A stretch of DNA of 18,219 bases from Candidatus Hadarchaeota archaeon (GTDB lineage Archaea; Hadarchaeota; Hadarchaeia; Hadarchaeales; Hadarchaeaceae). Shown one piece after another: positions 3,538 to 18,219 of the stretch (position 1 is its first letter; each line of letters begins with the position of its first letter). Made by a program: the position numbers and the translations under genes. The notes beneath the pieces are model-generated. The model had not been told where the DNA came from and did no database searches. It saw only the letters and a list, made by a program, of their open reading frames with translations. The stretch is from contig JBFMBF010000024.1 in NCBI GenBank assembly GCA_040755315.1, positions 1 to 18,219 on the forward strand. Reading direction: 5' to 3'.

Positions 3538-4130
3538 ATGACAGAAAAAAGATTCTGTTGGGCGTTGGGACCATAGTTATCGTGGTAATCTTGGCGGTCG
3601 TCCTGCCATTTTTTAGCGGCGCTCTAACAGGAAGAAAGAACCCGGCGGATGTTTTGCTGAAATCAAGCGACCTGTCAAACAACTTCCAACCAACGGCGGA
3701 CAACAAAATATACGTGAACATGACTGACAATGTGGAACCACAGGGCGAGGCAGGTTACAGTAGAACATTTGAATTTCATTCGTATTTTGTGGGTACGGTT
3801 CAATTGGAATCAACCGCGATTAGGTACGATTCAGCAGGGCATGCGGGCAGCGCTTTTAGTAGCATGCGTTCACAGCTTTCAGGTTCTGGTTTCACTATTG
3901 TGTCCGGTTCACAAATCGGCGACGAGTCTGTTTTTGGAAAGAGCAATCAGTACGGTTGGTGGGTATACACCTTTAGAAAACAGAACTTCATCGCCACGGT
4001 TTCCGTTATCAATCTAGGCGGCACTGAAAACTTCACTGTAAGAACTGGCGTTGTTGTCGGCGTTACAGGGAACGAAATTCTACAGGCAGAGATTGAGAGT
4101 TACGCTCAGATAATGAAAAATCGGATTTAA
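3538..4130 (+). CDS. Membrane-anchored/secreted hypothetical protein; start uncertain
   Basis: The frame of ORF 3438..4130 has KKILLGVGTIVIVVILAVVLPFF (signal/anchor) followed by a soluble domain. Visibly lower GC than its neighbours. ATG 3538 is out of frame by one base; the first in-frame start after trmI is TTG 3558. Confidence 0.65.
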
Positions 4131-9465: not shown

Positions 9466-10695
9466 ATGTCGGTGAGAATGCGCGGGTTTGAAAAATACAG
9501 CCCGCTGGGCGCCGCCCTGAAGCTGGTTCTTTCGCATGTCAGGCCGCTGCCCCCGGAGTCGGTCCCGTTCCAAAACACAGTGGGCAGGGTTCTGGCAGAG
9601 GATGTCGTTGCGGAGAGCGACTCCCCGCCGTTCAGAAGGTCGACCATGGACGGCTTCGCCGTTAGGGCCTCGGACACTTTCGGGGCCGGGCCGTCGACCC
9701 CAGTGGCGCTGAATGTTGTCGGCTCGGTCCGCAGCGGGTTCATGCCGAAGGCGAGCGTTGGGCGGAAGGAGGCCTTGAAAATAATGACGGGGGCGCCCGT
9801 GCCGAAGGGGGCGGATGCAGTTGTGATGGTCGAGCACACGAAGCTTCAGGGGCGGAGGCTGGAGGTTCTTCTGCCAGTGACGCCCGGCAAAAACACATCC
9901 GAGAGGGGCGAGGACATAAAGGCCGGCGAAGTTGTTTTGAAAAAGGGGCATGTGATTCACCCGCAGGATGTCGGGATGTTCGCCCAGATGCAGAACCTCG
10001 GCGTCAGGGTTTTCAGGAGGCCCAAGGTCGCGGTCGCCACCACAGGGGAGGAGCTTGTGGCGCCGGGAAGGAAGCTGCCTCCGGCGAAGATAGTTGACTC
10101 CAACTCATACTCCTTGGCCGCCGCAGTCACAGCCGCCGGAGGGGTTCCGCAGGTTCTTGGCATAGCCCCGGACGACAGGCAGTCTATAAAAAAATTGATC
10201 CAGCGCTCTTTGGGCCACGACATGGTTCTTCTTTCTGGAGGCAGTTCTGTGGGGGAGTTTGACCTCGTGCCGGAAATCATTTCCGAGATGGGCAAAATGG
10301 TTTTTCACGGCGTCTCCATCAGGCCCGGGGGCCCGACGGCTTTCGGGGTGATCAAAAAGAAGCCAGTCTTCTGTCTGGCGGGGTTCCCGGTAGCCACCCT
10401 AGTTGCATTCCATCTCCTGGTCCGCCCTGCACTCTTGGCGATGCAGGAGCTCCCGCCGGACCACGGCCGCAGGGCAGTGACGGCGAGGCTGACGAAGGAT
10501 GTGAGCGGGACCCTCGGGCGCATGGATGTCGTCAGGGTGAGGGTGAGGAAGGCGCGCGAGTGGCTTGCGGAGCCATTGATGGTAGGCGGCTCCAGCCTGC
10601 TGAGCTCCATGACGGGCGCGGACGGGTTCATCACGGTGCCGGAGGACATCGAGGGGCTGAACAAGGGGCAGAAGGTCGAAGTCGAACTGTATTGA
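9466..10695 (+). CDS. moeA: Molybdopterin molybdotransferase MoeA (Mo/W cofactor biosynthesis)
   Basis: GRVLAEDV, PPFRRSTMDGFAV, IMTGAP.P.GADAVVMVE, TGEEL, DSNS, SGGSSVG..D, RPGGP. Start at ATG 9466 or 9478. Confidence 0.95.
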   Translation: MSVRMRGFEKYSPLGAALKLVLSHVRPLPPESVPFQNTVGRVLAEDVVAESDSPPFRRSTMDGFAVRASDTFGAGPSTPVALNVVGSVRSGFMPKASVGRKEALKIMTGAPVPKGADAVVMVEHTKLQGRRLEVLLPVTPGKNTSERGEDIKAGEVVLKKGHVIHPQDVGMFAQMQNLGVRVFRRPKVAVATTGEELVAPGRKLPPAKIVDSNSYSLAAAVTAAGGVPQVLGIAPDDRQSIKKLIQRSLGHDMVLLSGGSSVGEFDLVPEIISEMGKMVFHGVSIRPGGPTAFGVIKKKPVFCLAGFPVATLVAFHLLVRPALLAMQELPPDHGRRAVTARLTKDVSGTLGRMDVVRVRVRKAREWLAEPLMVGGSSLLSSMTGADGFITVPEDIEGLNKGQKVEVELY

Positions 10696-10766
10696 TCAAG
10701 AAAATCCGAAAACTTTCAGAATAATTTTAAATCCAATTTCTGAGGCAAGGTCACACCAACGGAGCG

Positions 10767-11012: not shown

Positions 11013-12581
11013 TTGAATGTCCACGCGATCGTCGAGGGGCTCAACATAAACGACAAGAAGGTGCTGGTGTCCCTCCAGCAGCTGGAAGGCAAGGCAGATG
11101 TGGAAAAAATAGCCAGGCAGGCAGACATGGACCAAGCCGCCGTCATGCGCGGCGCCCTTTACCTGAGCGAGCGCGGGATGGTGAAGATAATTGAGGAAAG
11201 ATCGTTCACAGCCAGCCTGACTCCAGAAGGGTGGGAATACGCGGAGGAAGGGCTGCCGGAGCGCAGGATGCTTATGGCCCTGGCCAGTTGTGGGTCAGAG
11301 GTGATTGATGAGGTCGCCGCCCGGGCAGGCCTGAGCGAGCAGCAGAAGCAGATAGCTCTGGCTTGGCTCAAGCGCAGGGGATGGGCGGAGTTCGTGAAAA
11401 GGGACGAAAGAACCGCGCTACAGATGACTGAAAGGGGCGCCGCGGCGCTTTCTACGGACGAGGCCGACGAGGAGCTTCTCGAGCGGCTGGCCTCACGGGA
11501 GCTTGACGTCGGGAGTCTGGACAACGAGACAAGGGAGCGGCTCGACGTTCTTGTGGACAGGAAGCTGGCGAAAGTTGACGAGAGGGCCCGCCGCGAGCTT
11601 GAGATCACGGAGTTCGGCAGGCAGGCAGTTGAGGCGGGGCTTGAGATAGTTGGGGAGGTGAGCGGGCTCACGCACGAGCTCATCCAGAGCGGGAAGTGGA
11701 GGGAGGCGAAGCTGAAGCGCTACGATGTGCTCGCGCCCGTTGCCCCTGTTTATCCTGGAAAAATCCACCCCCAACAAAAAATAATCGATGAAATAAGGGA
11801 AATCCTCCTCGAGATGGGGTTCCTCGAGATAAAGAGCAGGATAGTCGACTCAGAGTTCTGGAACTTCGACGCCCTCTTCCAGGCGCAGGACCACCCCGCG
11901 AGGGAGATTCATGACAGCCTCTCGCTCTCAAGGCCGGAGAAGGCTAAACTCCCTCCTGAAAAACTGCTTAAAAAAGTTGCAGCTGCCCACGAGGGGGGAG
12001 TGGCCGGGTCAAGCGGATGGGGTTACAACTTCAACCCAGAGATCAGCCAGCGGCCTGTCCTTTGCTCGCAGACGACTGCCGCGACCGTCAGGTATCTCGC
12101 CTCAAAGCCCGAGCCCCCCGTGAAGGTCTTCTGCATCGACCGCGTCTACCGCCACGAGAAGATAGACTACAAGCACCTGGCGGAGTTCTACCAGTGCGAG
12201 GGGATAGTCATGAACGAGGGGCTGACGCTCCGCGACATGCTGGGCTACCTCAAGCAGGTCGTCACCAAGCTGGGGCTGCCGAAGATAAGGTTCAGGCCAG
12301 GGATGTTTCCGTTTACAGAACCATCGGTTGAAGCAGATGTTTATCACGAAGGCAGGAAAGAGTGGATTGAAATCTTGGGAGCTGGTTTGTTCAGGCCAGA
12401 GGTTCTACAACCACTAGGTATCCGTTATCCGGTGCTCGCGTGGGGGATTGGGCTTACTAGGCTAATAACAATACGACTGGAGTTGGATGATATAAGAAAC
12501 ATATTTTCCACCGACTTGAATTGGATTTCAAATTTTGTATTGTCAACTAAAAATAAAAATGAGGATGTAACATGCCGATAA
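11013..12581 (+). CDS. pheS: Phenylalanine--tRNA ligase alpha subunit (archaeal/eukaryote type)
   Basis: N-terminal wHTH-type region (LTPEG.EYAEEGLPE), FWNFDALFQAQDHPARE, motif 2 RVYRHE..D..HLAEFYQ, FPFTEPS, GAGLFRPE, AWGIG. TTG 11013 with GGGGTTGA upstream; the ORF-track extension to 10848 is not credible. Confidence 0.96.
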   Translation: MNVHAIVEGLNINDKKVLVSLQQLEGKADVEKIARQADMDQAAVMRGALYLSERGMVKIIEERSFTASLTPEGWEYAEEGLPERRMLMALASCGSEVIDEVAARAGLSEQQKQIALAWLKRRGWAEFVKRDERTALQMTERGAAALSTDEADEELLERLASRELDVGSLDNETRERLDVLVDRKLAKVDERARRELEITEFGRQAVEAGLEIVGEVSGLTHELIQSGKWREAKLKRYDVLAPVAPVYPGKIHPQQKIIDEIREILLEMGFLEIKSRIVDSEFWNFDALFQAQDHPAREIHDSLSLSRPEKAKLPPEKLLKKVAAAHEGGVAGSSGWGYNFNPEISQRPVLCSQTTAATVRYLASKPEPPVKVFCIDRVYRHEKIDYKHLAEFYQCEGIVMNEGLTLRDMLGYLKQVVTKLGLPKIRFRPGMFPFTEPSVEADVYHEGRKEWIEILGAGLFRPEVLQPLGIRYPVLAWGIGLTRLITIRLELDDIRNIFSTDLNWISNFVLSTKNKNEDVTCR

Positions 12582-14209
12582 TTACAGCAAGTTATCGCGA
12601 TCTCTGCAGGCTGCTCGGAAGGAAGATCGAGGTCGAGAAGCTTTGCGAGAGGCTTTCAATGGTGGGGATGGAGACAGAGGCCGAGGGATATTCTCTGAAG
12701 ATGGAGGTGTTCCACAACAGGCCCGACCTGCTCAGCCCAGAGGGGGTCGCGCGCGCCTTGAAGGGGTTCCTCGGGATTGAAACAGGGTTGCCGCGCTACA
12801 GACTCTCCGGGCCTCGCGTGGTCGTCGACGTGGATGCGAGCGTGGCCCAGGTGAGGCCGTTCATAGCGGCTGGAGTGGTCAGGGACGTCCAACTGACGGA
12901 CGACATCGTGGCGTCGCTGATGCAGATTCAGGAGAAGCTGCACGCCTCACTCTGCAGGAACAGGAGGAGGGCGTCCATTGGGGTCTACGACATGGACAAG
13001 GTCGCGCCACCGATAAAGTACACGACGGTAGCCCCTGACGGGATAAAGTTCACGCCGCTTGATTTCGGTCACGAGTGCACCCCAGCCCAGATCCTGATGG
13101 AGCACCCGAAGGGGCTGGAGTACTCCTGGCTCCTGAAAGACATGCCGCGCTACCCGCTTCTTGTGGACTCGAAAGGCGTCGTGCTCTCGATGCCGCCGAT
13201 AATCAACAGCGAGGACACCAGGGTCACGAGCGGGACCAAGAACCTCTTCATCGATGTCACGGGGCTTGACGAGAGGGCGGTGGAGCAGCCGCTGGCGATA
13301 TTGATGACCGCTTTGGCGGAGAGGGGGTTCAAGATTGAGCAAGTGGCTGTAAGGCGCAGAAAGGCCATCACAAAAACCCCAGACTTGAACCCTCGAAAGC
13401 ACAAGCTCAGCATCAGGCAAGCGAACCGGACGATAGGGCTCAACCTCGCGTCGAAGGAGATTGCGAGGGTGGCCAAGCGCATGCGTTATGGAGTTGGAGG
13501 AGCCAAGGGCGATTCCGTTACTCTCCTCGCGCCGCCGTACAGGACTGACATCATGCACGAGATTGACTTGATTGAGGACATCGCGGTGGGTTACGGCTAC
13601 GACAGACTTGAGCCGACATACCCAAAGGTCCTGACGATAGGGGAGAAGGCGGAGGTTGAGAAGACAAGCAGCGAGGCGAGGCAGGTTCTCACTGGACTCG
13701 GGTTCACGGAGGTCATGAATTACATCTTGACCAACCCCCGCAGCGAGATGGAGCTCATGAAGGTCAAGGAGGAGGTGGCGGAGATAGCCAACCCCGTTTC
13801 GGAGGAGTACACGATTTTGCGCGCCTCGCTGATTCCATCCCTGCTTGGCAGCCTGCATCAGAACAGGCGCAACCCTCTCCCGCAGAGAATTTTCGAGGTC
13901 GGCGACGTGGTTGTACTTGACCCATCTGCTGAAACAGGTGCCGCAAACGTCAGGCGTGCGGCAGGCGCAATAATCGGTGGGGGGGCGGGCTTCACAGAGA
14001 TCAAGGGAATTGCAGAGGCTCTTCTCAGGGAACTTGGCGTGAAATGTGATGTCAAGGCGGCATGGAGCGCGAGCTTCCTAGACGGCCGGGCGGTTGAGTT
14101 TTATTCCGAAGGCAAAAAAATCGGCGTTGCCGGGGAAATTCATCCAGAGGTTCTTGTCGAGTTCGAGCTTGAGCACCCGGCCGCGGTTTTTGAGGTGGAT
14201 CTGGAGTAA
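12572..14209 (+). CDS. pheT: Phenylalanine--tRNA ligase beta subunit (archaeal type)
   Basis: MPII..., NRPDLLS.EG.AR, QEKLH...RNRR..SIG.YD, LSMPPIINS, RTDIMHEIDLIEDIAVGYGY, NPVSEEY..LR.SL.P, FEVGDVV, GEIHPEVL..FEL. Overlaps pheS by 10 nt. Confidence 0.97.
   Translation: MPIITASYRDLCRLLGRKIEVEKLCERLSMVGMETEAEGYSLKMEVFHNRPDLLSPEGVARALKGFLGIETGLPRYRLSGPRVVVDVDASVAQVRPFIAAGVVRDVQLTDDIVASLMQIQEKLHASLCRNRRRASIGVYDMDKVAPPIKYTTVAPDGIKFTPLDFGHECTPAQILMEHPKGLEYSWLLKDMPRYPLLVDSKGVVLSMPPIINSEDTRVTSGTKNLFIDVTGLDERAVEQPLAILMTALAERGFKIEQVAVRRRKAITKTPDLNPRKHKLSIRQANRTIGLNLASKEIARVAKRMRYGVGGAKGDSVTLLAPPYRTDIMHEIDLIEDIAVGYGYDRLEPTYPKVLTIGEKAEVEKTSSEARQVLTGLGFTEVMNYILTNPRSEMELMKVKEEVAEIANPVSEEYTILRASLIPSLLGSLHQNRRNPLPQRIFEVGDVVVLDPSAETGAANVRRAAGAIIGGGAGFTEIKGIAEALLRELGVKCDVKAAWSASFLDGRAVEFYSEGKKIGVAGEIHPEVLVEFELEHPAAVFEVDLE
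14132..14209 (+). repeat. pheT 3'-end repeat, copy 1 (the functional gene end)
   Basis: Encodes GEIHPEVLVEFELEHPAAVFEVDLE*. 14163-14196 is identical to 16577-16610. Confidence 0.95.
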
Positions 14210-14225
14210 AAAAAGCCCGTTTTTT
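14208..14225 (+). terminator. Putative oligo-T terminator after pheT
   Basis: An A-run, GCCCG, then TTTTTT immediately after the stop; oligo-T is present on both strands. Confidence 0.4.
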
Positions 14226-14272
14226 GTCAATTGCCAATGCTAATGACAAACTTTAAATAAAAGCTTGTCAAT
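14223..14272 (+). promoter_or_regulatory. TATA box flanked by TTGTCA/TGACAA half-sites upstream of the ATPase
   Basis: TTTGTCA 14223-14229, TGACAAA 14244-14250, TTTAAATA 14252-14259, TTGTCAAT 14265-14272. Confidence 0.55.
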
Positions 14273-14287
14273 AAAAAACTGATACTT

Positions 14288-15592
14288 GTGAACGTTGAGG
14301 ACATAAAAAGGGTCGTGCTGGACCAAAGGGAAGAGCTTGAGGAGATTTTCCGGAGGGAAAAGATAGTCGACAGGACCGTGCCAACGGAAAAACTGCTGAA
14401 GGCTCTGGCACATCCAAACATCCTTGCTATCTTGGGCGTCAGGAGATGCGGCAAGTCCGTATTGTCGCACCTTCTTCTGAAAGGAAAACGGTACGGATAT
14501 GTAAACTTTGACGATGAGAGGCTTGCCAATATGGCAACAGAAGATCTGGACCGAGTTCTGCAGGCATTCTACGAGATTGAAAAGGACTTGGACTACCTCG
14601 TCTTGGACGAAATCCAAGATGTGCCGAAGTGGGAGCTTTTTGCCAACAGGCTGAGGAGGACGAAAAAGGTTGTCATAACGGGGAGCAATGCCAAACTGCT
14701 ATCGGGAGAACTGGCGACGCACCTCACGGGCAGGTACTTGGACTTCATCCTCTACCCGTTCTCGTTCGAGGAGTTCCTGCGCGTGAAGGGGGGCGAGGTC
14801 GGCCGCGATGCCACATACTCTACTAAAAAAACAGCCGAGATAAAGAGCGCCCTCCGTGACTACATGCACACCGGAGGCTTCCCAGAAGCATGCAAGTTTG
14901 GGAAGGGTGCCATAAACAAAGTTTACGAGGACATCATCACAAAAGACATACTGCTCAGGCACGGTGTTAGAAAAGAGAGGGATTTCAAAGATTTGGCGAG
15001 GTACCTGATCTCAAACTTCTCAAAAGAGGTTACTTTTTCGAAGTTGAAAAACCTGTTTGGGATAAGGAACGTCCACACGGCGAAAAATTACGTGGATTAC
15101 CTGGTCACCTCATACTTGGTCTTCACGGTGGAGCGATTCTCTTTCAAGTTGAAGCGGCAGATGATAGCACCGAAGAAGGTTTACTGCGTTGACATCGGAA
15201 TTTTGGACGTGATGGCCTCGCGGTTCTCGGAAGACACAGGCAAATTGATGGAGAACTTGGTTTTTTTGGAGTTGCTGAGGAAGAAATCGTTCATAGAAAA
15301 ACCGCGCGAAATTTTCTACTGGAAGGACCACCAGCAGCGGGAGGTTGACTTTGTAGTTAAAGATGGGATGAATGTGAAACAATTGATTCAGGTGGCATAC
15401 GCTTCCGGCAGGGACGAGATAGAAAAAAGGGAAATGGACGCCCTTGTGAAAGCCAGCGATGAACTGAGGTGTAATGGCTTGTTGGTGGTAACTTGGGATT
15501 ACGGCGGAGAATTGAAGCTCAAAAACAAAAAAATAACATGCATGCCATTGTGGAAATGGTTGCTGGGGGATGGGTGGGGAGGTCCATCCTGA
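14288..15592 (+). CDS. AAA+ ATPase with C-terminal DUF4143 / PD-(D/E)xK-like domain (COG1373-like)
   Basis: Walker A GVRRCGKS, YVNFDDERL, Walker B LDEIQ, ITGSN..LL..E.AT.LTGR, PFSF.EF, GGFPE, KKVY.VD.G, MENLV, FYWKD....EVDFV, PLWKWL. Confidence 0.92.
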   Translation: MNVEDIKRVVLDQREELEEIFRREKIVDRTVPTEKLLKALAHPNILAILGVRRCGKSVLSHLLLKGKRYGYVNFDDERLANMATEDLDRVLQAFYEIEKDLDYLVLDEIQDVPKWELFANRLRRTKKVVITGSNAKLLSGELATHLTGRYLDFILYPFSFEEFLRVKGGEVGRDATYSTKKTAEIKSALRDYMHTGGFPEACKFGKGAINKVYEDIITKDILLRHGVRKERDFKDLARYLISNFSKEVTFSKLKNLFGIRNVHTAKNYVDYLVTSYLVFTVERFSFKLKRQMIAPKKVYCVDIGILDVMASRFSEDTGKLMENLVFLELLRKKSFIEKPREIFYWKDHQQREVDFVVKDGMNVKQLIQVAYASGRDEIEKREMDALVKASDELRCNGLLVVTWDYGGELKLKNKKITCMPLWKWLLGDGWGGPS

Positions 15593-15647
15593 GGTGCTCG
15601 TCGGGTTCGAGCTTGAGCACTTGGCCGCTGTTTTCGAGCTACCTTGA
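15576..15647 (+). repeat. pheT 3'-end repeat, copy 2 (diverged)
   Basis: Translates as GEVHPEVLVGFELEHLAAVFELP*. 52/63 nt identical to 14132-14194; six of the nine changed codons are synonymous. Confidence 0.93.
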
Positions 15648-15735
15648 TGGGGAGAAGATGGAGCTGGTGCAGTTCGGGCCGGACGCTGGGTTCGGGGAGT
15701 GGAACTCGCTGGGGTTCGGGTTTATGAACAGGGTC
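15640..15735 (+). pseudogene. cas6: cas6 3'-terminal remnant
   Basis: Translates as YLDGEKMELVQFGPDAGFGEWNSLGFGFMNRV, containing the Cas6 glycine-rich loop GhGxxxxxGhG (15688-15720). The rest of the gene is absent. Confidence 0.75.
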
Positions 15736-15803
15736 GGGAGGGCCTGGGCAGAGTATGTTCCGAAAGTTTATTTTAGTTCATGCCGAATATAGGCCGTGGA
15801 AAG

Positions 15804-16001
15804 ATGGCAGCACGAAATTCTGATGTCGGGCGAAAGGCGCTCGAGGAGTTCAGGAAAAAGGTGAGGGAGGTCAGGGCGGCGGAGTGGAGGCGGGACGCTC
15901 GCCTTCTCAGAGACAGGACTCCAGAGGAAACCATAAGTGCGATGTTTGACTTGGTGAACTTTGCTGAAAACTTAAGCAGGGCGAAAAAATGCGAACCCTA
16001 G
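15804..16001 (+). CDS. Small charged helical protein, probable antitoxin partner of the downstream nucleotidyltransferase
   Basis: About 65 aa from ATG 15804, with LLRDRTPEETISAMFDL. TTTATTTT TATA-like run at about 15767. Overlaps the next gene by 13 nt. Confidence 0.6.
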   Translation: MAARNSDVGRKALEEFRKKVREVRAAEWRRDARLLRDRTPEETISAMFDLVNFAENLSRAKKCEP

Positions 16002-16567
16002 AGGACGTTACAAAAGAAGTCGCTAAAATCTTGGGGGCGCTTGGCATAGAATATGCCATTGTCGGGGGGGTGGCAGTTGCCGGTTGGGGGAACCTCAGGA
16101 CAACGAGGGACGTTGATGTCGTCATAGACCTCCAAAGCGACAGGGTGAAGGAGTTCGTCCGCGCTTTCAAGAAAAGGGGATTTTCCATTGGCGAGCAAGA
16201 TGTTTTGGATGCATTGAAAGAAAAGGGCCACTTCACGATTTTTGATAATCGCTCGGTGTACCACGTCGATGCCAAGGGTGCATACGGGGGAAGGGAGCTT
16301 AAAACAATCGAGACGAGGAAAAAGACGAGGATAAAGGGGTCCGATGCGTACATCGCGTCCGCCGAGGACACCATCGCAAACAAGCTGGTGTTTGGCAGCG
16401 AGCAGGACCTGAGGGACGCGGAGGGGATCTTCATAAGGCAGGCGGGGAGGCTTGATTTGAAGTACTTGGAGAGGATTTGTAAGGCGATGGGCGTGGGGAA
16501 GGAACTTGCGGGGCTGAAAAGGGCGGCCAGGGGGGCATCAGGAAGTCGGGGTCGTCGGCGCTTCTGA
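15989..16567 (+). CDS. Pol-beta superfamily nucleotidyltransferase (DUF6036/AbiEii/MenT-like), putative toxin
   Basis: YAIVGGVAV...G..RTTRDVDVV (GG...R.T.DhD) and C-terminal EDTIANKL...SEQDLRDA motifs. Confidence 0.8.
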   Translation: MRTLEDVTKEVAKILGALGIEYAIVGGVAVAGWGNLRTTRDVDVVIDLQSDRVKEFVRAFKKRGFSIGEQDVLDALKEKGHFTIFDNRSVYHVDAKGAYGGRELKTIETRKKTRIKGSDAYIASAEDTIANKLVFGSEQDLRDAEGIFIRQAGRLDLKYLERICKAMGVGKELAGLKRAARGASGSRGRRRF

Positions 16568-16623
16568 GGTTCTGGCTCGAGCTTGAGCACCCGGCCGCGG
16601 TTTTTGAGGTTGGGCTGGGGTAA
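16542..16623 (+). repeat. pheT 3'-end repeat, copy 3
   Basis: 34-nt perfect match (16577-16610) to 14163-14196, ending ELEHPAAVFEVGLG*. The upstream part reads EVGVVG..SEVL (cf. KIGVAGEIHPEVL) with small deletions. Confidence 0.95.
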
Positions 16624-16664
16624 AGAATTAAACACTTAGAATAAGATTATATTGGGGGCAGCAC

Positions 16665-17657
16665 ATGGGCATGAATCTAATCGTGGATGATTGGAAGACT
16701 TTCATCGGCAAAAAGGAAAACCGTTTCGAACTGCTTCAGGGCGAAAAAAAGACGGAATTCTCTGCGGACGATGTAAACCAGATAATTGTTGTGGCGGCAT
16801 CATCTATATCAGTTGGCGCTGTAAGGTTGGCGCTGGAAAAAGGGATAGACATAGTTTTCATCAACCGTTTTGGTGCGCCAACTGGCCGGATATATCCGTG
16901 CAAGCTTGGCGGTACCACATTTACCCGCAAAAGGCAACTTGAAGCCTATTTTTCTGGAAAAGGGTTGGAGCTGGCGAAGAATTTTATCAGCGGGAAGGTA
17001 AAAAACCAAGCGACCGTTTTGAAAGCTTTGCAGAAGACAAGAGCAAATGTCGATTTTGCTGAACAAATAGAAAAAATGAACGCGGGCTTGTCTCAGATTG
17101 GCGAGATTAATGGCGGTTTGGACGATGTTCGCGAAAAGCTGCTTGGGATAGAGGGCAATGCGGCGAGCGAATATTTCCAAGCGCTGTCTGAAATTCTGCC
17201 TTTTGAAAAGCGCGACAGAAAAAGCGGGGACATATTCAATACCATGCTCAACTATGCGTATGGAATTCTTTACTCCGAGGTCGAGAAAGCGTGCATTCTG
17301 GCAGGGCTAGACCCATATCTCGGCTATCTCCACACTGACCGTTATGGAAAACCATCTATGGTATTGGATTTGATTGAGGAGTTCCGTGCACCAATCGCCG
17401 ATAAGGCCGTTATAACTCTGATTGCCCGAAAGCAGGTTGAAGACAAGGATATTGAGAAAAATGGTGAAACGGTTCTTTTGAGCGAAAGCGGGCGAAAGAA
17501 AGTCATCGAAGCGGTTATGGCACGGCTTCACGGAACAGAAGAGCAGACAAACGCCGAGAAGAGACTAAAAAACGCCATAGTTGAACAGGCTCGTGCAGTG
17601 GCCAGATTTGTTCTTGGTTCGGCTGAGCGCTATCAACCATATGGGCTGGTCGGATAA
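16665..17657 (+). CDS. cas1: CRISPR-associated endonuclease Cas1
   Basis: LLGIEGNAA.EYF, FNTMLNYAYGILY, GLDPYLGYLH, SMVLDLIEEFR..IAD; catalytic E/H/E-D positions present. Confidence 0.97.
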   Translation: MGMNLIVDDWKTFIGKKENRFELLQGEKKTEFSADDVNQIIVVAASSISVGAVRLALEKGIDIVFINRFGAPTGRIYPCKLGGTTFTRKRQLEAYFSGKGLELAKNFISGKVKNQATVLKALQKTRANVDFAEQIEKMNAGLSQIGEINGGLDDVREKLLGIEGNAASEYFQALSEILPFEKRDRKSGDIFNTMLNYAYGILYSEVEKACILAGLDPYLGYLHTDRYGKPSMVLDLIEEFRAPIADKAVITLIARKQVEDKDIEKNGETVLLSESGRKKVIEAVMARLHGTEEQTNAEKRLKNAIVEQARAVARFVLGSAERYQPYGLVG

Positions 17658-17658
17658 C

Positions 17659-17958
17659 ATGCTGTGGTGGGTTATCTACGATATTTCTGAAAATAAAGTC
17701 AGGTCGTGTGCATCATCCAAGTGTAAAAATTACGGGTTAGTCAGAGTCCAAAAAAGTGCGTTTCTGGGGGAGCTTAGTAAAAACCGCGCGGAGATGTTAT
17801 CATTGGAACTAAAAGATGTCATAAAAGAAGGCGACTGTATTTTTCTTATCCCGACATGCACGAATTGTTTTCAAGATAAGATAATCCACGGTAGTTTCGA
17901 TGATGCTGTTGCTAAGAAAAAAGACTGGTATATCATCGGTGGGAATGATGAAGTATGA
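17659..17958 (+). CDS. cas2: CRISPR-associated protein Cas2
   Basis: MLWWVIYDIS...R....KCKNYGLVRVQKSAFLG, 99 aa; starts 1 nt after the cas1 stop. Confidence 0.95.
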   Translation: MLWWVIYDISENKVRSCASSKCKNYGLVRVQKSAFLGELSKNRAEMLSLELKDVIKEGDCIFLIPTCTNCFQDKIIHGSFDDAVAKKKDWYIIGGNDEV

Positions 17959-18219
17959 TGGGCTGGTTTCGGCAACTGATGTGATGAAATACTTGTATTG
18001 TCCGAGAATCATTTACTTCATTTATGTTTTACAATCCCCTCAGCTAGTGACTGCAAAAGAGAATAAAGGTTTGGAAAAATATCAAGAATTCAAAACCAAA
18101 TCAAAAAGAAATAAAATAGTAAAAGAGTTTCCCAAAATGAAAAAAGTTTATGATGTTTCCCTGTTATCGAACAAATTTGGTGCTATTACCAAAACAGATT
18201 GTATTCTGATAAACGAAGA
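17945..18219 (+). CDS. cas4: CRISPR-associated exonuclease Cas4 (5' part; truncated by the window edge)
   Basis: Not in the ORF track. Hand translation gives MMKYDGLVSATDVMKYLYCPRIIYF...SLLSNKFGAITKTDCILINE, open to the window end. YCPR Fe-S motif; overlaps cas2. Confidence 0.9.
   Translation, partial: MMKYDGLVSATDVMKYLYCPRIIYFIYVLQSPQLVTAKENKGLEKYQEFKTKSKRNKIVKEFPKMKKVYDVSLLSNKFGAITKTDCILINE

Follow-up and report, generated by a model that had tools for sequence, protein, structure and literature searches.

Genes and pheT-end copies at the locus

We analysed the complete contig C24 (18,219 nt, hereafter the window) of a Candidatus Hadarchaeota archaeon assembly (genome G000; 1.21 Mb, 86.6% complete), in which pheT, the host gene for the phenylalanine-tRNA ligase beta subunit, is followed by an array of defence-type modules and by further copies of its own 3' end. 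A sister genome (G002) has a 93% amino acid-identical pheT. All features of the locus listed next are on the forward strand. The pheT gene (12572..14209; TIGR00471 pheT_arch, E=3e-179) ends with copy 1, the resident 3' end (14132..14209; repeat search and BLAST). Next come a leader with a predicted promoter and operator (14232..14287), the gene of an AAA_14 and DUF4143 ATPase that matches the PADLOC candidate PDC-S01 (14288..15592; E=7e-109), and copy 2 (15566..15638), a decayed pheT end joined to a cas6 3'-end remnant (15633..15744; Cas6 C-terminal, Pfam PF01881, E=8e-5). A predicted toxin–antitoxin (TA) pair follows, consisting of a small gene (15780..16001) and a DUF6036 nucleotidyltransferase gene (15989..16567; Pfam) behind a predicted B recognition element (BRE)/TATA-like promoter (15762..15774). 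Copy 3 (16540..16623) then separates this pair from cas1 (16665..17657; Pfam and NCBIfam), cas2 (17659..17958; Pfam and PADLOC) and cas4 (17945..18219; PADLOC and NCBIfam), the last of which is cut by the contig end.

The preliminary description of this DNA had claimed three copies of the pheT 3' end and a perfect 34-nt core common to copies 1 and 3, and both claims were confirmed. According to the repeat search, 14132-14194, 15576-15638 (83%) and 16546-16608 (62% ungapped) form one three-copy family, and BLAST places the core at 14163-14196 and 16577-16610 (E=5e-13). When the whole 1.21-Mb assembly was searched by BLAST, the three copies and the core run were found on this contig only. The copies are direct repeats longer than 30 bp (63-nt and 51-nt matches) that are not dispersed in the genome, and the inserts between them measure about 1.35 and 0.9 kb. 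The repeats are made of pheT codons, and none of the longest 25 of 27 inverted-repeat pairs lies inside a copy, as attC-like palindromes would.

Copy 2 differs from copy 1 by 12 substitutions, of which 7 fall on third positions; 6 of the affected codons are synonymous and 3 are non-synonymous. It has a Pro to Leu change in common with G002, is fused to the cas6 remnant and stops three codons past FE (AVFELP*). The 5' part of copy 3 has lost 5 and 6 nt in two deletions, with the 3' part and stop codon in frame (FEVGLG*); the pheT genes of many relatives end in DLG* or DLE*. The native ends of the ATPase and nucleotidyltransferase genes are lost, and both open reading frames (ORFs) stop inside the next displaced gene end (a scar, as we call such copies here): the ATPase stop codon is supplied by copy 2, and the nucleotidyltransferase reads through into copy 3.

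The preliminary description had also given each module its own promoter-like stretch, and those of the ATPase and TA modules do recur in conserved form in other genomes, upstream of homologous or analogous modules. In the ATPase leader, TATA-like TTTAAATA (14252-14259) lies between TGACAA (14244-14249) and TTGTCA (14265-14270), an arrangement kept upstream of the 81%-identical ATPase of genome G044; the resulting palindrome (14244-14270) is a candidate autoregulatory operator of PDC-S01. The BRE/TATA-like element of the TA pair, whose promoter role is predicted, is conserved in G002, G006 and G024. In G006 and G024, TA modules are preceded by a segment made of a cas6 end and a promoter, which the cas6 remnant plus spacer of the window resembles. 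A scan for sigma-70 promoters, which does not cover archaeal promoters, found none.

As for the remaining gene content, the small gene has no family match in Pfam, PADLOC or NCBIfam and is predicted to be an antitoxin-like partner of the nucleotidyltransferase; its homologues precede nucleotidyltransferase genes in G002, G003 and G008. The GC content of the ATPase gene is 0.484, compared with 0.583 for pheT. Neither an array of clustered regularly interspaced short palindromic repeats (CRISPR) nor a full cas6 was found in this assembly.

The pheT locus in the sister genome and in other relatives

In G002, pheT is followed after 27 nt by a copy 2, shorter than here, that is joined to the same cas6 remnant, the small gene and the nucleotidyltransferase gene, copy 3 with the same deletions as here, a full cas6 and a further gene. 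The full cas6 and further gene thus stand where this genome has cas1-2-4, and the sequences diverge about 9 nt past the copy 3 stop, the common flank reaching about 16632. The ATPase has no match in G002 and is also absent from G001, and cas1 was found in neither of these genomes. Within the nucleotidyltransferase pair, the middle 470 nt of G002 is another allele (about 55% identical) between flanks of about 90% identity; the 5' 60% of the nucleotidyltransferase gene is swapped. As G002 carries copies 2 and 3 with other cargo, the array is real and variable, and the pheT-end copies are probably not a product of mis-assembly. The claim of integrase-less modules with displaced gene ends and variable content is therefore borne out, G002 differing in the ATPase, the TA core and the cas genes.

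The order of insertion proposed in the preliminary description stands only in part. The ATPase adjoins pheT and is missing in G002, as expected if the newest insertion lies nearest pheT, but it may also have been lost in G002. A strict order of one scar for each module does not hold, since copy 2 is present in G002 without the ATPase, and cas1-2-4 has no assembled far-side scar. The fusion of copy 2 to a cas6 end, together with copy 3 before a full cas6 in G002, suggests that a single inserted unit probably comprised a pheT tail, cas6 and the TA pair and lost its cas6 interior later; the cas6 remnant is an allele other than the full cas6 of G002.

The non-coding block is 89–97% identical between the two species despite differences at 93 of 256 (36%) pheT fourfold sites, which implies either recent block exchange or unexpected constraint. 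Over 31.6 kb aligned at 15% mismatch, G000 and G002 have 15 perfect runs of 60–127 nt in common, most of them in coding DNA. These runs favour exchange, possibly by short-tract recombination between the species.

To see how far the arrangement extends, we surveyed 100 other pheT loci (20 genome regions and 80 metagenome loci), of which 74 have at least 1.5 kb downstream. Downstream pheT-end copies were found at one of the 100, namely G002; since most metagenome loci are distant, a hotspot may hold within the G000/G002 species pair only. A metagenome scan with the pheT C-terminus gave no close relatives (best match 74% amino acid identity), and all 28 other short pheT loci, which overlap with the 20 genome regions, are without downstream copies. 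The pheT-end scars that the preliminary description expected downstream of pheT in relatives are thus present in G002 and were not found at the remaining loci. The likely far side of the island, at the start of contig C35 beside spt4, carries no pheT scar; spt4 follows pheT in 8 of 19 other relatives examined.

Gene-end copies around other modules

Copies of 40–200 nt of gene ends or gene starts bracket TA and DUF4143 modules at many other genes. A self-scan of the assembly gave 50 local repeat pairs, and outside giant repetitive genes many of them bracket TA or ATPase modules, among them an MNT-HEPN pair (ThiS end), a ParE/RelE pair (RNase P RNA start), a second DUF4143 ATPase, PIN pairs, and PemK with a second pheA at the prephenate dehydrogenase end. 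To measure the enrichment, we chose modules by family first and counted as bracketed those with direct repeats within 1.5 kb, with 300 of 1013 ORFs sampled as controls (288 scorable). Six of 18 scorable TA/DUF4143 matches are bracketed (two at the pheT locus, one borderline), as compared to 6 of 288 random ORFs, and five of those six random ORFs are the same TA/DUF4143 modules. Without the pheT locus, 4 of 16 modules and 1 of 283 other genes are bracketed (Fisher p=2.7e-5). Order-wide, 70 DUF4143 matches were examined, and 12 of the 63 with enough flank are bracketed versus 4 of 143 control tiles (p=1.8e-4); as kin are not independent and the tiles come from a single genomic neighbourhood, these p-values are overstated and should be taken as indicative. 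Among relatives of the ATPase in other archaea (36 loci, 31 with enough flank), 13 have repeats, and at four of these the repeat is clearly a gene end or start; examples are a ThiF gene with an array of three copies and cysS with a scar.

The targets are unrelated to each other. They include the protein genes of SepRS, LeuRS, CysRS, ThiF, ThiS, prephenate dehydrogenase and cas6, a glycosyltransferase start, and, among RNA genes, the RNase P RNA start and a tRNA end. The closest relative of the ATPase (G044, from another family, 81% DNA identity) lies between 194-nt copies of a different gene end, and in G018 a cas1-2-4 block 69% identical to the present one follows a tRNA-end scar around an MNT pair. 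The clearest event is at ThiS: G002 has a single 65-nt end that overlaps the start of the next gene, and in this genome two copies, differing at 1 of 65 nt (98% identical) and with a boundary 2 nt after the stop, flank the MNT-HEPN pair, whose homologue lies elsewhere in G002. Read from the two genomes, this is a strict case of insertion with target duplication, for which G002 shows the clean empty site. The perfect identity of the ThiS target between the species (0/69 versus 17/121 flanking mismatches) was set aside as weak, because such runs are not rare between G000 and G002.

We note several further loci with this anatomy. At L288 (G000 C11:35500-40000), a foreign pheA with PemK and an unnamed gene stands behind the prephenate dehydrogenase gene, the native pheA being a deleted remnant behind the scar; G002 retains the native order. 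At L283:761-840, the RNase P RNA promoter, together with the 40 nt at the start of the gene, is copied upstream of the ParE/RelE pair, and the same slot in G002 holds a different gene and no second RNase P RNA copy. At L268:2040-5010, three glycosyltransferase-start copies alternate with a DUF4143 ATPase and an MNT pair, and the remnant of an ATPase end precedes the intact gene, so that the locus is a mirror image of the pheT array. In a Nanoarchaeota locus (L162:4463-7614), three ThiF-end copies surround two DUF4143 ATPases, with the third copy a mosaic of the first and second. L182 is a 3.9-kb contig with two ATPase modules and 138 nt identical at both ends (1-138 and 3765-3902), which may reflect a circular molecule, a tandem arrangement or a repeat at which the assembly broke. 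Aminoacyl-tRNA synthetases account for four of the protein-gene targets: PheRS (the window), SepRS, LeuRS and CysRS (L222, L262 and L179). L285 (G000 C34:1-3500) has three 220–300-nt copies of a surface-protein fragment between PIN-type TA pairs, and at G000 C27:10367-10409 and 10691-10732 a tRNA 5' start is copied about 320 nt upstream of the tRNA gene.

The pheT locus is therefore part of a genome-wide habit and not a pheT-specific integron. The preliminary description had seen pheT as a special hotspot with an att-like core, and this view is not supported: one of 100 loci is scarred, the same anatomy is found at many unrelated genes, and repeat boundaries are not constant (copies 2 and 3 end differently, and repeats of 40–194 nt are found at many genes). 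Its comparison with an integron array fails as well. As in integrons, the newest module would lie nearest a fixed point and TA cassettes have their own promoters; unlike integrons, the locus has no intI, attI or palindromic attC, and its repeat is host coding sequence. We note that the assembly does have an integron integrase on another contig, C40 (L031), which we take to be IntI-like from its motif, with attC-like repeats of its own and cassette-like genes. The tetranucleotide correlation of C40 with the genome is low (0.61), a property it has in common with two contigs carrying giant repetitive genes, and C40 is possibly a binned bacterial contig or possibly an archaeal integron.

Origin of the scars and relation to known systems

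We hold with moderate confidence that the pheT array arose through a series of recombinase-free insertions, each of which was anchored by homology at the gene end and left a long target duplication, the incoming DNA from a relative probably bringing its own copy of the gene end. The anatomy of the array, its variation between the genomes, the enrichment and the empty site at ThiS are observed; the following recombination steps we infer. A donor fragment (a gene tail plus a 1–1.5-kb module) would pair with the host gene tail through host homologous recombination, and the other end of the module would be joined by short microhomology 40–200 nt upstream of the stop, often clipping the last codons of the module. 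The new end would restore the gene and leave the old end downstream as a scar. Further rounds would add, swap or delete modules while scars decay by indels, and whole blocks would move between related species by recombination in the scars. Such a route would not be specific to pheT; any conserved gene boundary beside a module could serve.

The structure of the scars was examined for traces of these steps. The left junction restores the gene, and the right junction clips module ORFs, with possible overlaps of 3–7 nt in decayed sequence. For boundaries, 15 of 25 pairs were retained after dropping three paralogue pairs and seven others (two from a giant gene with many repeats, four that were doubtful or internal to a module, and one with a spurious ORF); in all 15 the scar 3' boundary lies -15 to +11 nt from the stop. 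Fourteen scars extend as far as the stop. In 12 of these the homologous codon is still a stop, in 4–5 cases another stop codon, and a plain stop-to-sense change was seen in none (the two pheT copy-3 rows are not independent). Since decay without constraint should abolish a stop more often than swap it for another, the scars probably were once working alleles displaced by incoming ends. It is this pooled result, and not copy 2 alone, that supports the earlier reading of displaced, once-translated alleles. For codon positions we pooled 19 pairs, with two L268 pairs excluded because their repeats are glycosyltransferase starts. Third positions account for 141 of 267 substitutions (52.8%), frameshifts are frequent, and the share among pheT orthologues is 78.5%. 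The pooled pattern fits allelic divergence plus decay or in-place duplication plus decay.

Several observations weigh against the proposed route. The 52.8% share is no different from the 50% expected for in-place duplication and decay (p=0.39) and far below 78.5%, so the codon pattern alone is no proof of foreign alleles. At ThiS and tyrA it is the resident copy, not the scar, that is closer to the sister. Fading similarity past a stop confounds the clustering of boundaries there, and the 3–7 nt junction microhomologies, read from decayed sequence, are only suggestive. No detectable repeat flanks 51 of the 63 order-wide modules, and the 12 positives include repeats that are intergenic or at the level of the module. 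Finally, no empty pheT site was seen among the relatives, as G002 carries copies 2 and 3 and the others are too distant.

The strongest alternative, which we regard as possible but clearly less probable, is long target duplication in place, in which break repair or template switching would attach foreign DNA at two staggered sites. The copies would then start out identical, selection would keep gene-sparing events, and no donor allele would be needed. It accounts for the third-position share, which matches one constrained and one neutral copy, for the near-identical ThiS copies with the sister's allele as resident, and for the tyrA resident copy, which retains the first 7 nt of the native pheA; it would also be the same phenomenon as that described for bacterial restriction-modification (RM) genes (PMC2853133). 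It does not explain why stops are kept or exchanged and not lost, why the cas6 scar of G006 ends like the full cas6 of another genome, or why the repeats hug one gene boundary and hardly ever span two genes.

Tandem duplication of a longer segment (pheT end, cas6 and TA genes) followed by selective trimming deletions is unlikely. The joining of copy 2 to a cas6 end, with a full cas6 after copy 3 in G002, would suit a segment that was once twofold and lost one interior, and a decayed pheA start follows the tyrA scar. However, it does not explain how single foreign modules came in where the empty site is clean, as at ThiS with its 98% repeats, and the cas6 remnant and the full cas6 of G002 are different alleles.

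Ranked just after it, and likewise improbable, is site-specific integration driven by a trans-acting integrase, with an att site inside the pheT end. The perfect core of copies 1 and 3 would suit a crossover site, copy 3 is attR-like in its degenerate 5' arm and intact 3' arm and matches its own pheT at one diagnostic codon in both species, and tyrosine recombinases are present in 30 of 46 family genomes. Against this, neither a recombinase, for which the preliminary description had proposed a search, nor a transposase was found in the locus with Pfam, PADLOC and NCBIfam; the sole PF00589 tyrosine recombinase in the 86.6% complete assembly is the integron integrase on C40, and the PF00239 resolvase family has no match in the three genomes of the genus. 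In addition, G008 (94% complete, three contigs) has a cas6-end scar and no PF00589 match, repeat lengths and targets vary freely, the same ATPase stands at another gene end in G044, and scarred pheT loci are rare in the survey. Tandem islands with attL and attR form at tRNA genes and at protein-gene ends, including the staphylococcal cassette chromosome (SCC) and pseudo-SCC elements at rlmH. They resemble the pheT array in that a replacement end restores the target gene and displaced fragments mark successive insertions, and differ in that they rely on a dedicated integrase acting on one target with a fixed crossover; nothing of this kind was found here.

Strain-chimeric mis-assembly, a concern with any metagenome-assembled genome and one that the preliminary description had raised, is very improbable, given that copies 2 and 3 with common deletions occur in an independent sister-species genome and that the copies diverge far beyond what an assembler would collapse or split. 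The PDC-S01 nuclease was also considered as a general scar maker and was rejected because TA-only modules are scarred too.

Two systems in the literature come close to the pheT array. Furuta, Abe and Kobayashi (2010; PMC2853133) describe insertion of bacterial RM genes with long target duplication, where repeats are long and variable, often lie over a start or stop and come without mobility genes; no archaeal RM case survived their selection, and the mechanism was left open. As in those cases, the repeats here are unique in the genome, the target gene survives and, for the ThiS locus of this genome, a relative has an empty site. The pheT inserts are smaller than 20 kb and lack a mobility gene; at pheT itself, G002 carries copies 2 and 3. 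The present loci differ in their archaeal hosts, their PDC-S01, TA and cas cargo, their scars stacked in threes and the stop-codon evidence; with PDC-S01 and a DUF6036 pair in place of RM genes, the pheT array works like the RM cases and is not one of them. The second system is the type VI secretion system (T6SS) effector-immunity and Rhs arrays, for which homology-facilitated illegitimate recombination has been proposed (Kirchberger et al. 2017, PMC5361080). The Vibrio arrays too have one homologous anchor and one illegitimate joint, older material is pushed downstream, arrays are later moved whole by ordinary recombination and no integrase was found. Their anchor is a conserved gene of the module itself and the old effector is deleted, whereas the anchor of the pheT array is an unrelated housekeeping gene whose end is duplicated. 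We found no literature on gene-end scars around archaeal TA/DUF4143 modules or on pheT as a target, in a search that covered sources other than subscription journals and supplements. What is known is thus the recombinase-free insertion of bacterial restriction genes, and what is new here are the stacked arrays, the TA/PDC-S01 cargo and the measured enrichment.

PDC-S01 is reported to be the fourth most common prokaryotic defence candidate and to move between domains (PMC12988326). PDC-S01 and small TA pairs usually come without a visible vehicle, and a scar at about one fifth of such genes gives a handle on how they arrive, as well as a means of dating and ordering insertions. Scars also offer a guilt-by-scar rule for new defence genes, in which anything between a gene end and its displaced copy becomes a candidate, and the unexplained 'long target duplication' becomes testable in a genetically tractable archaeon. 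More tentatively, archaea may spread the most common of their small defence modules (PDC-S01, MNT-HEPN, RelBE, PIN and CRISPR blocks) as self-renewing units of a gene tail plus module: host recombination between scar and gene would free a circle that re-enters the same conserved gene in a neighbour species, exchanges an essential protein's C-terminus and builds integron-like arrays free of integrases.

Upstream of pheT in the window, the last codons of pheS (12480-12570) are markedly AT-rich as compared to the remainder of that gene.

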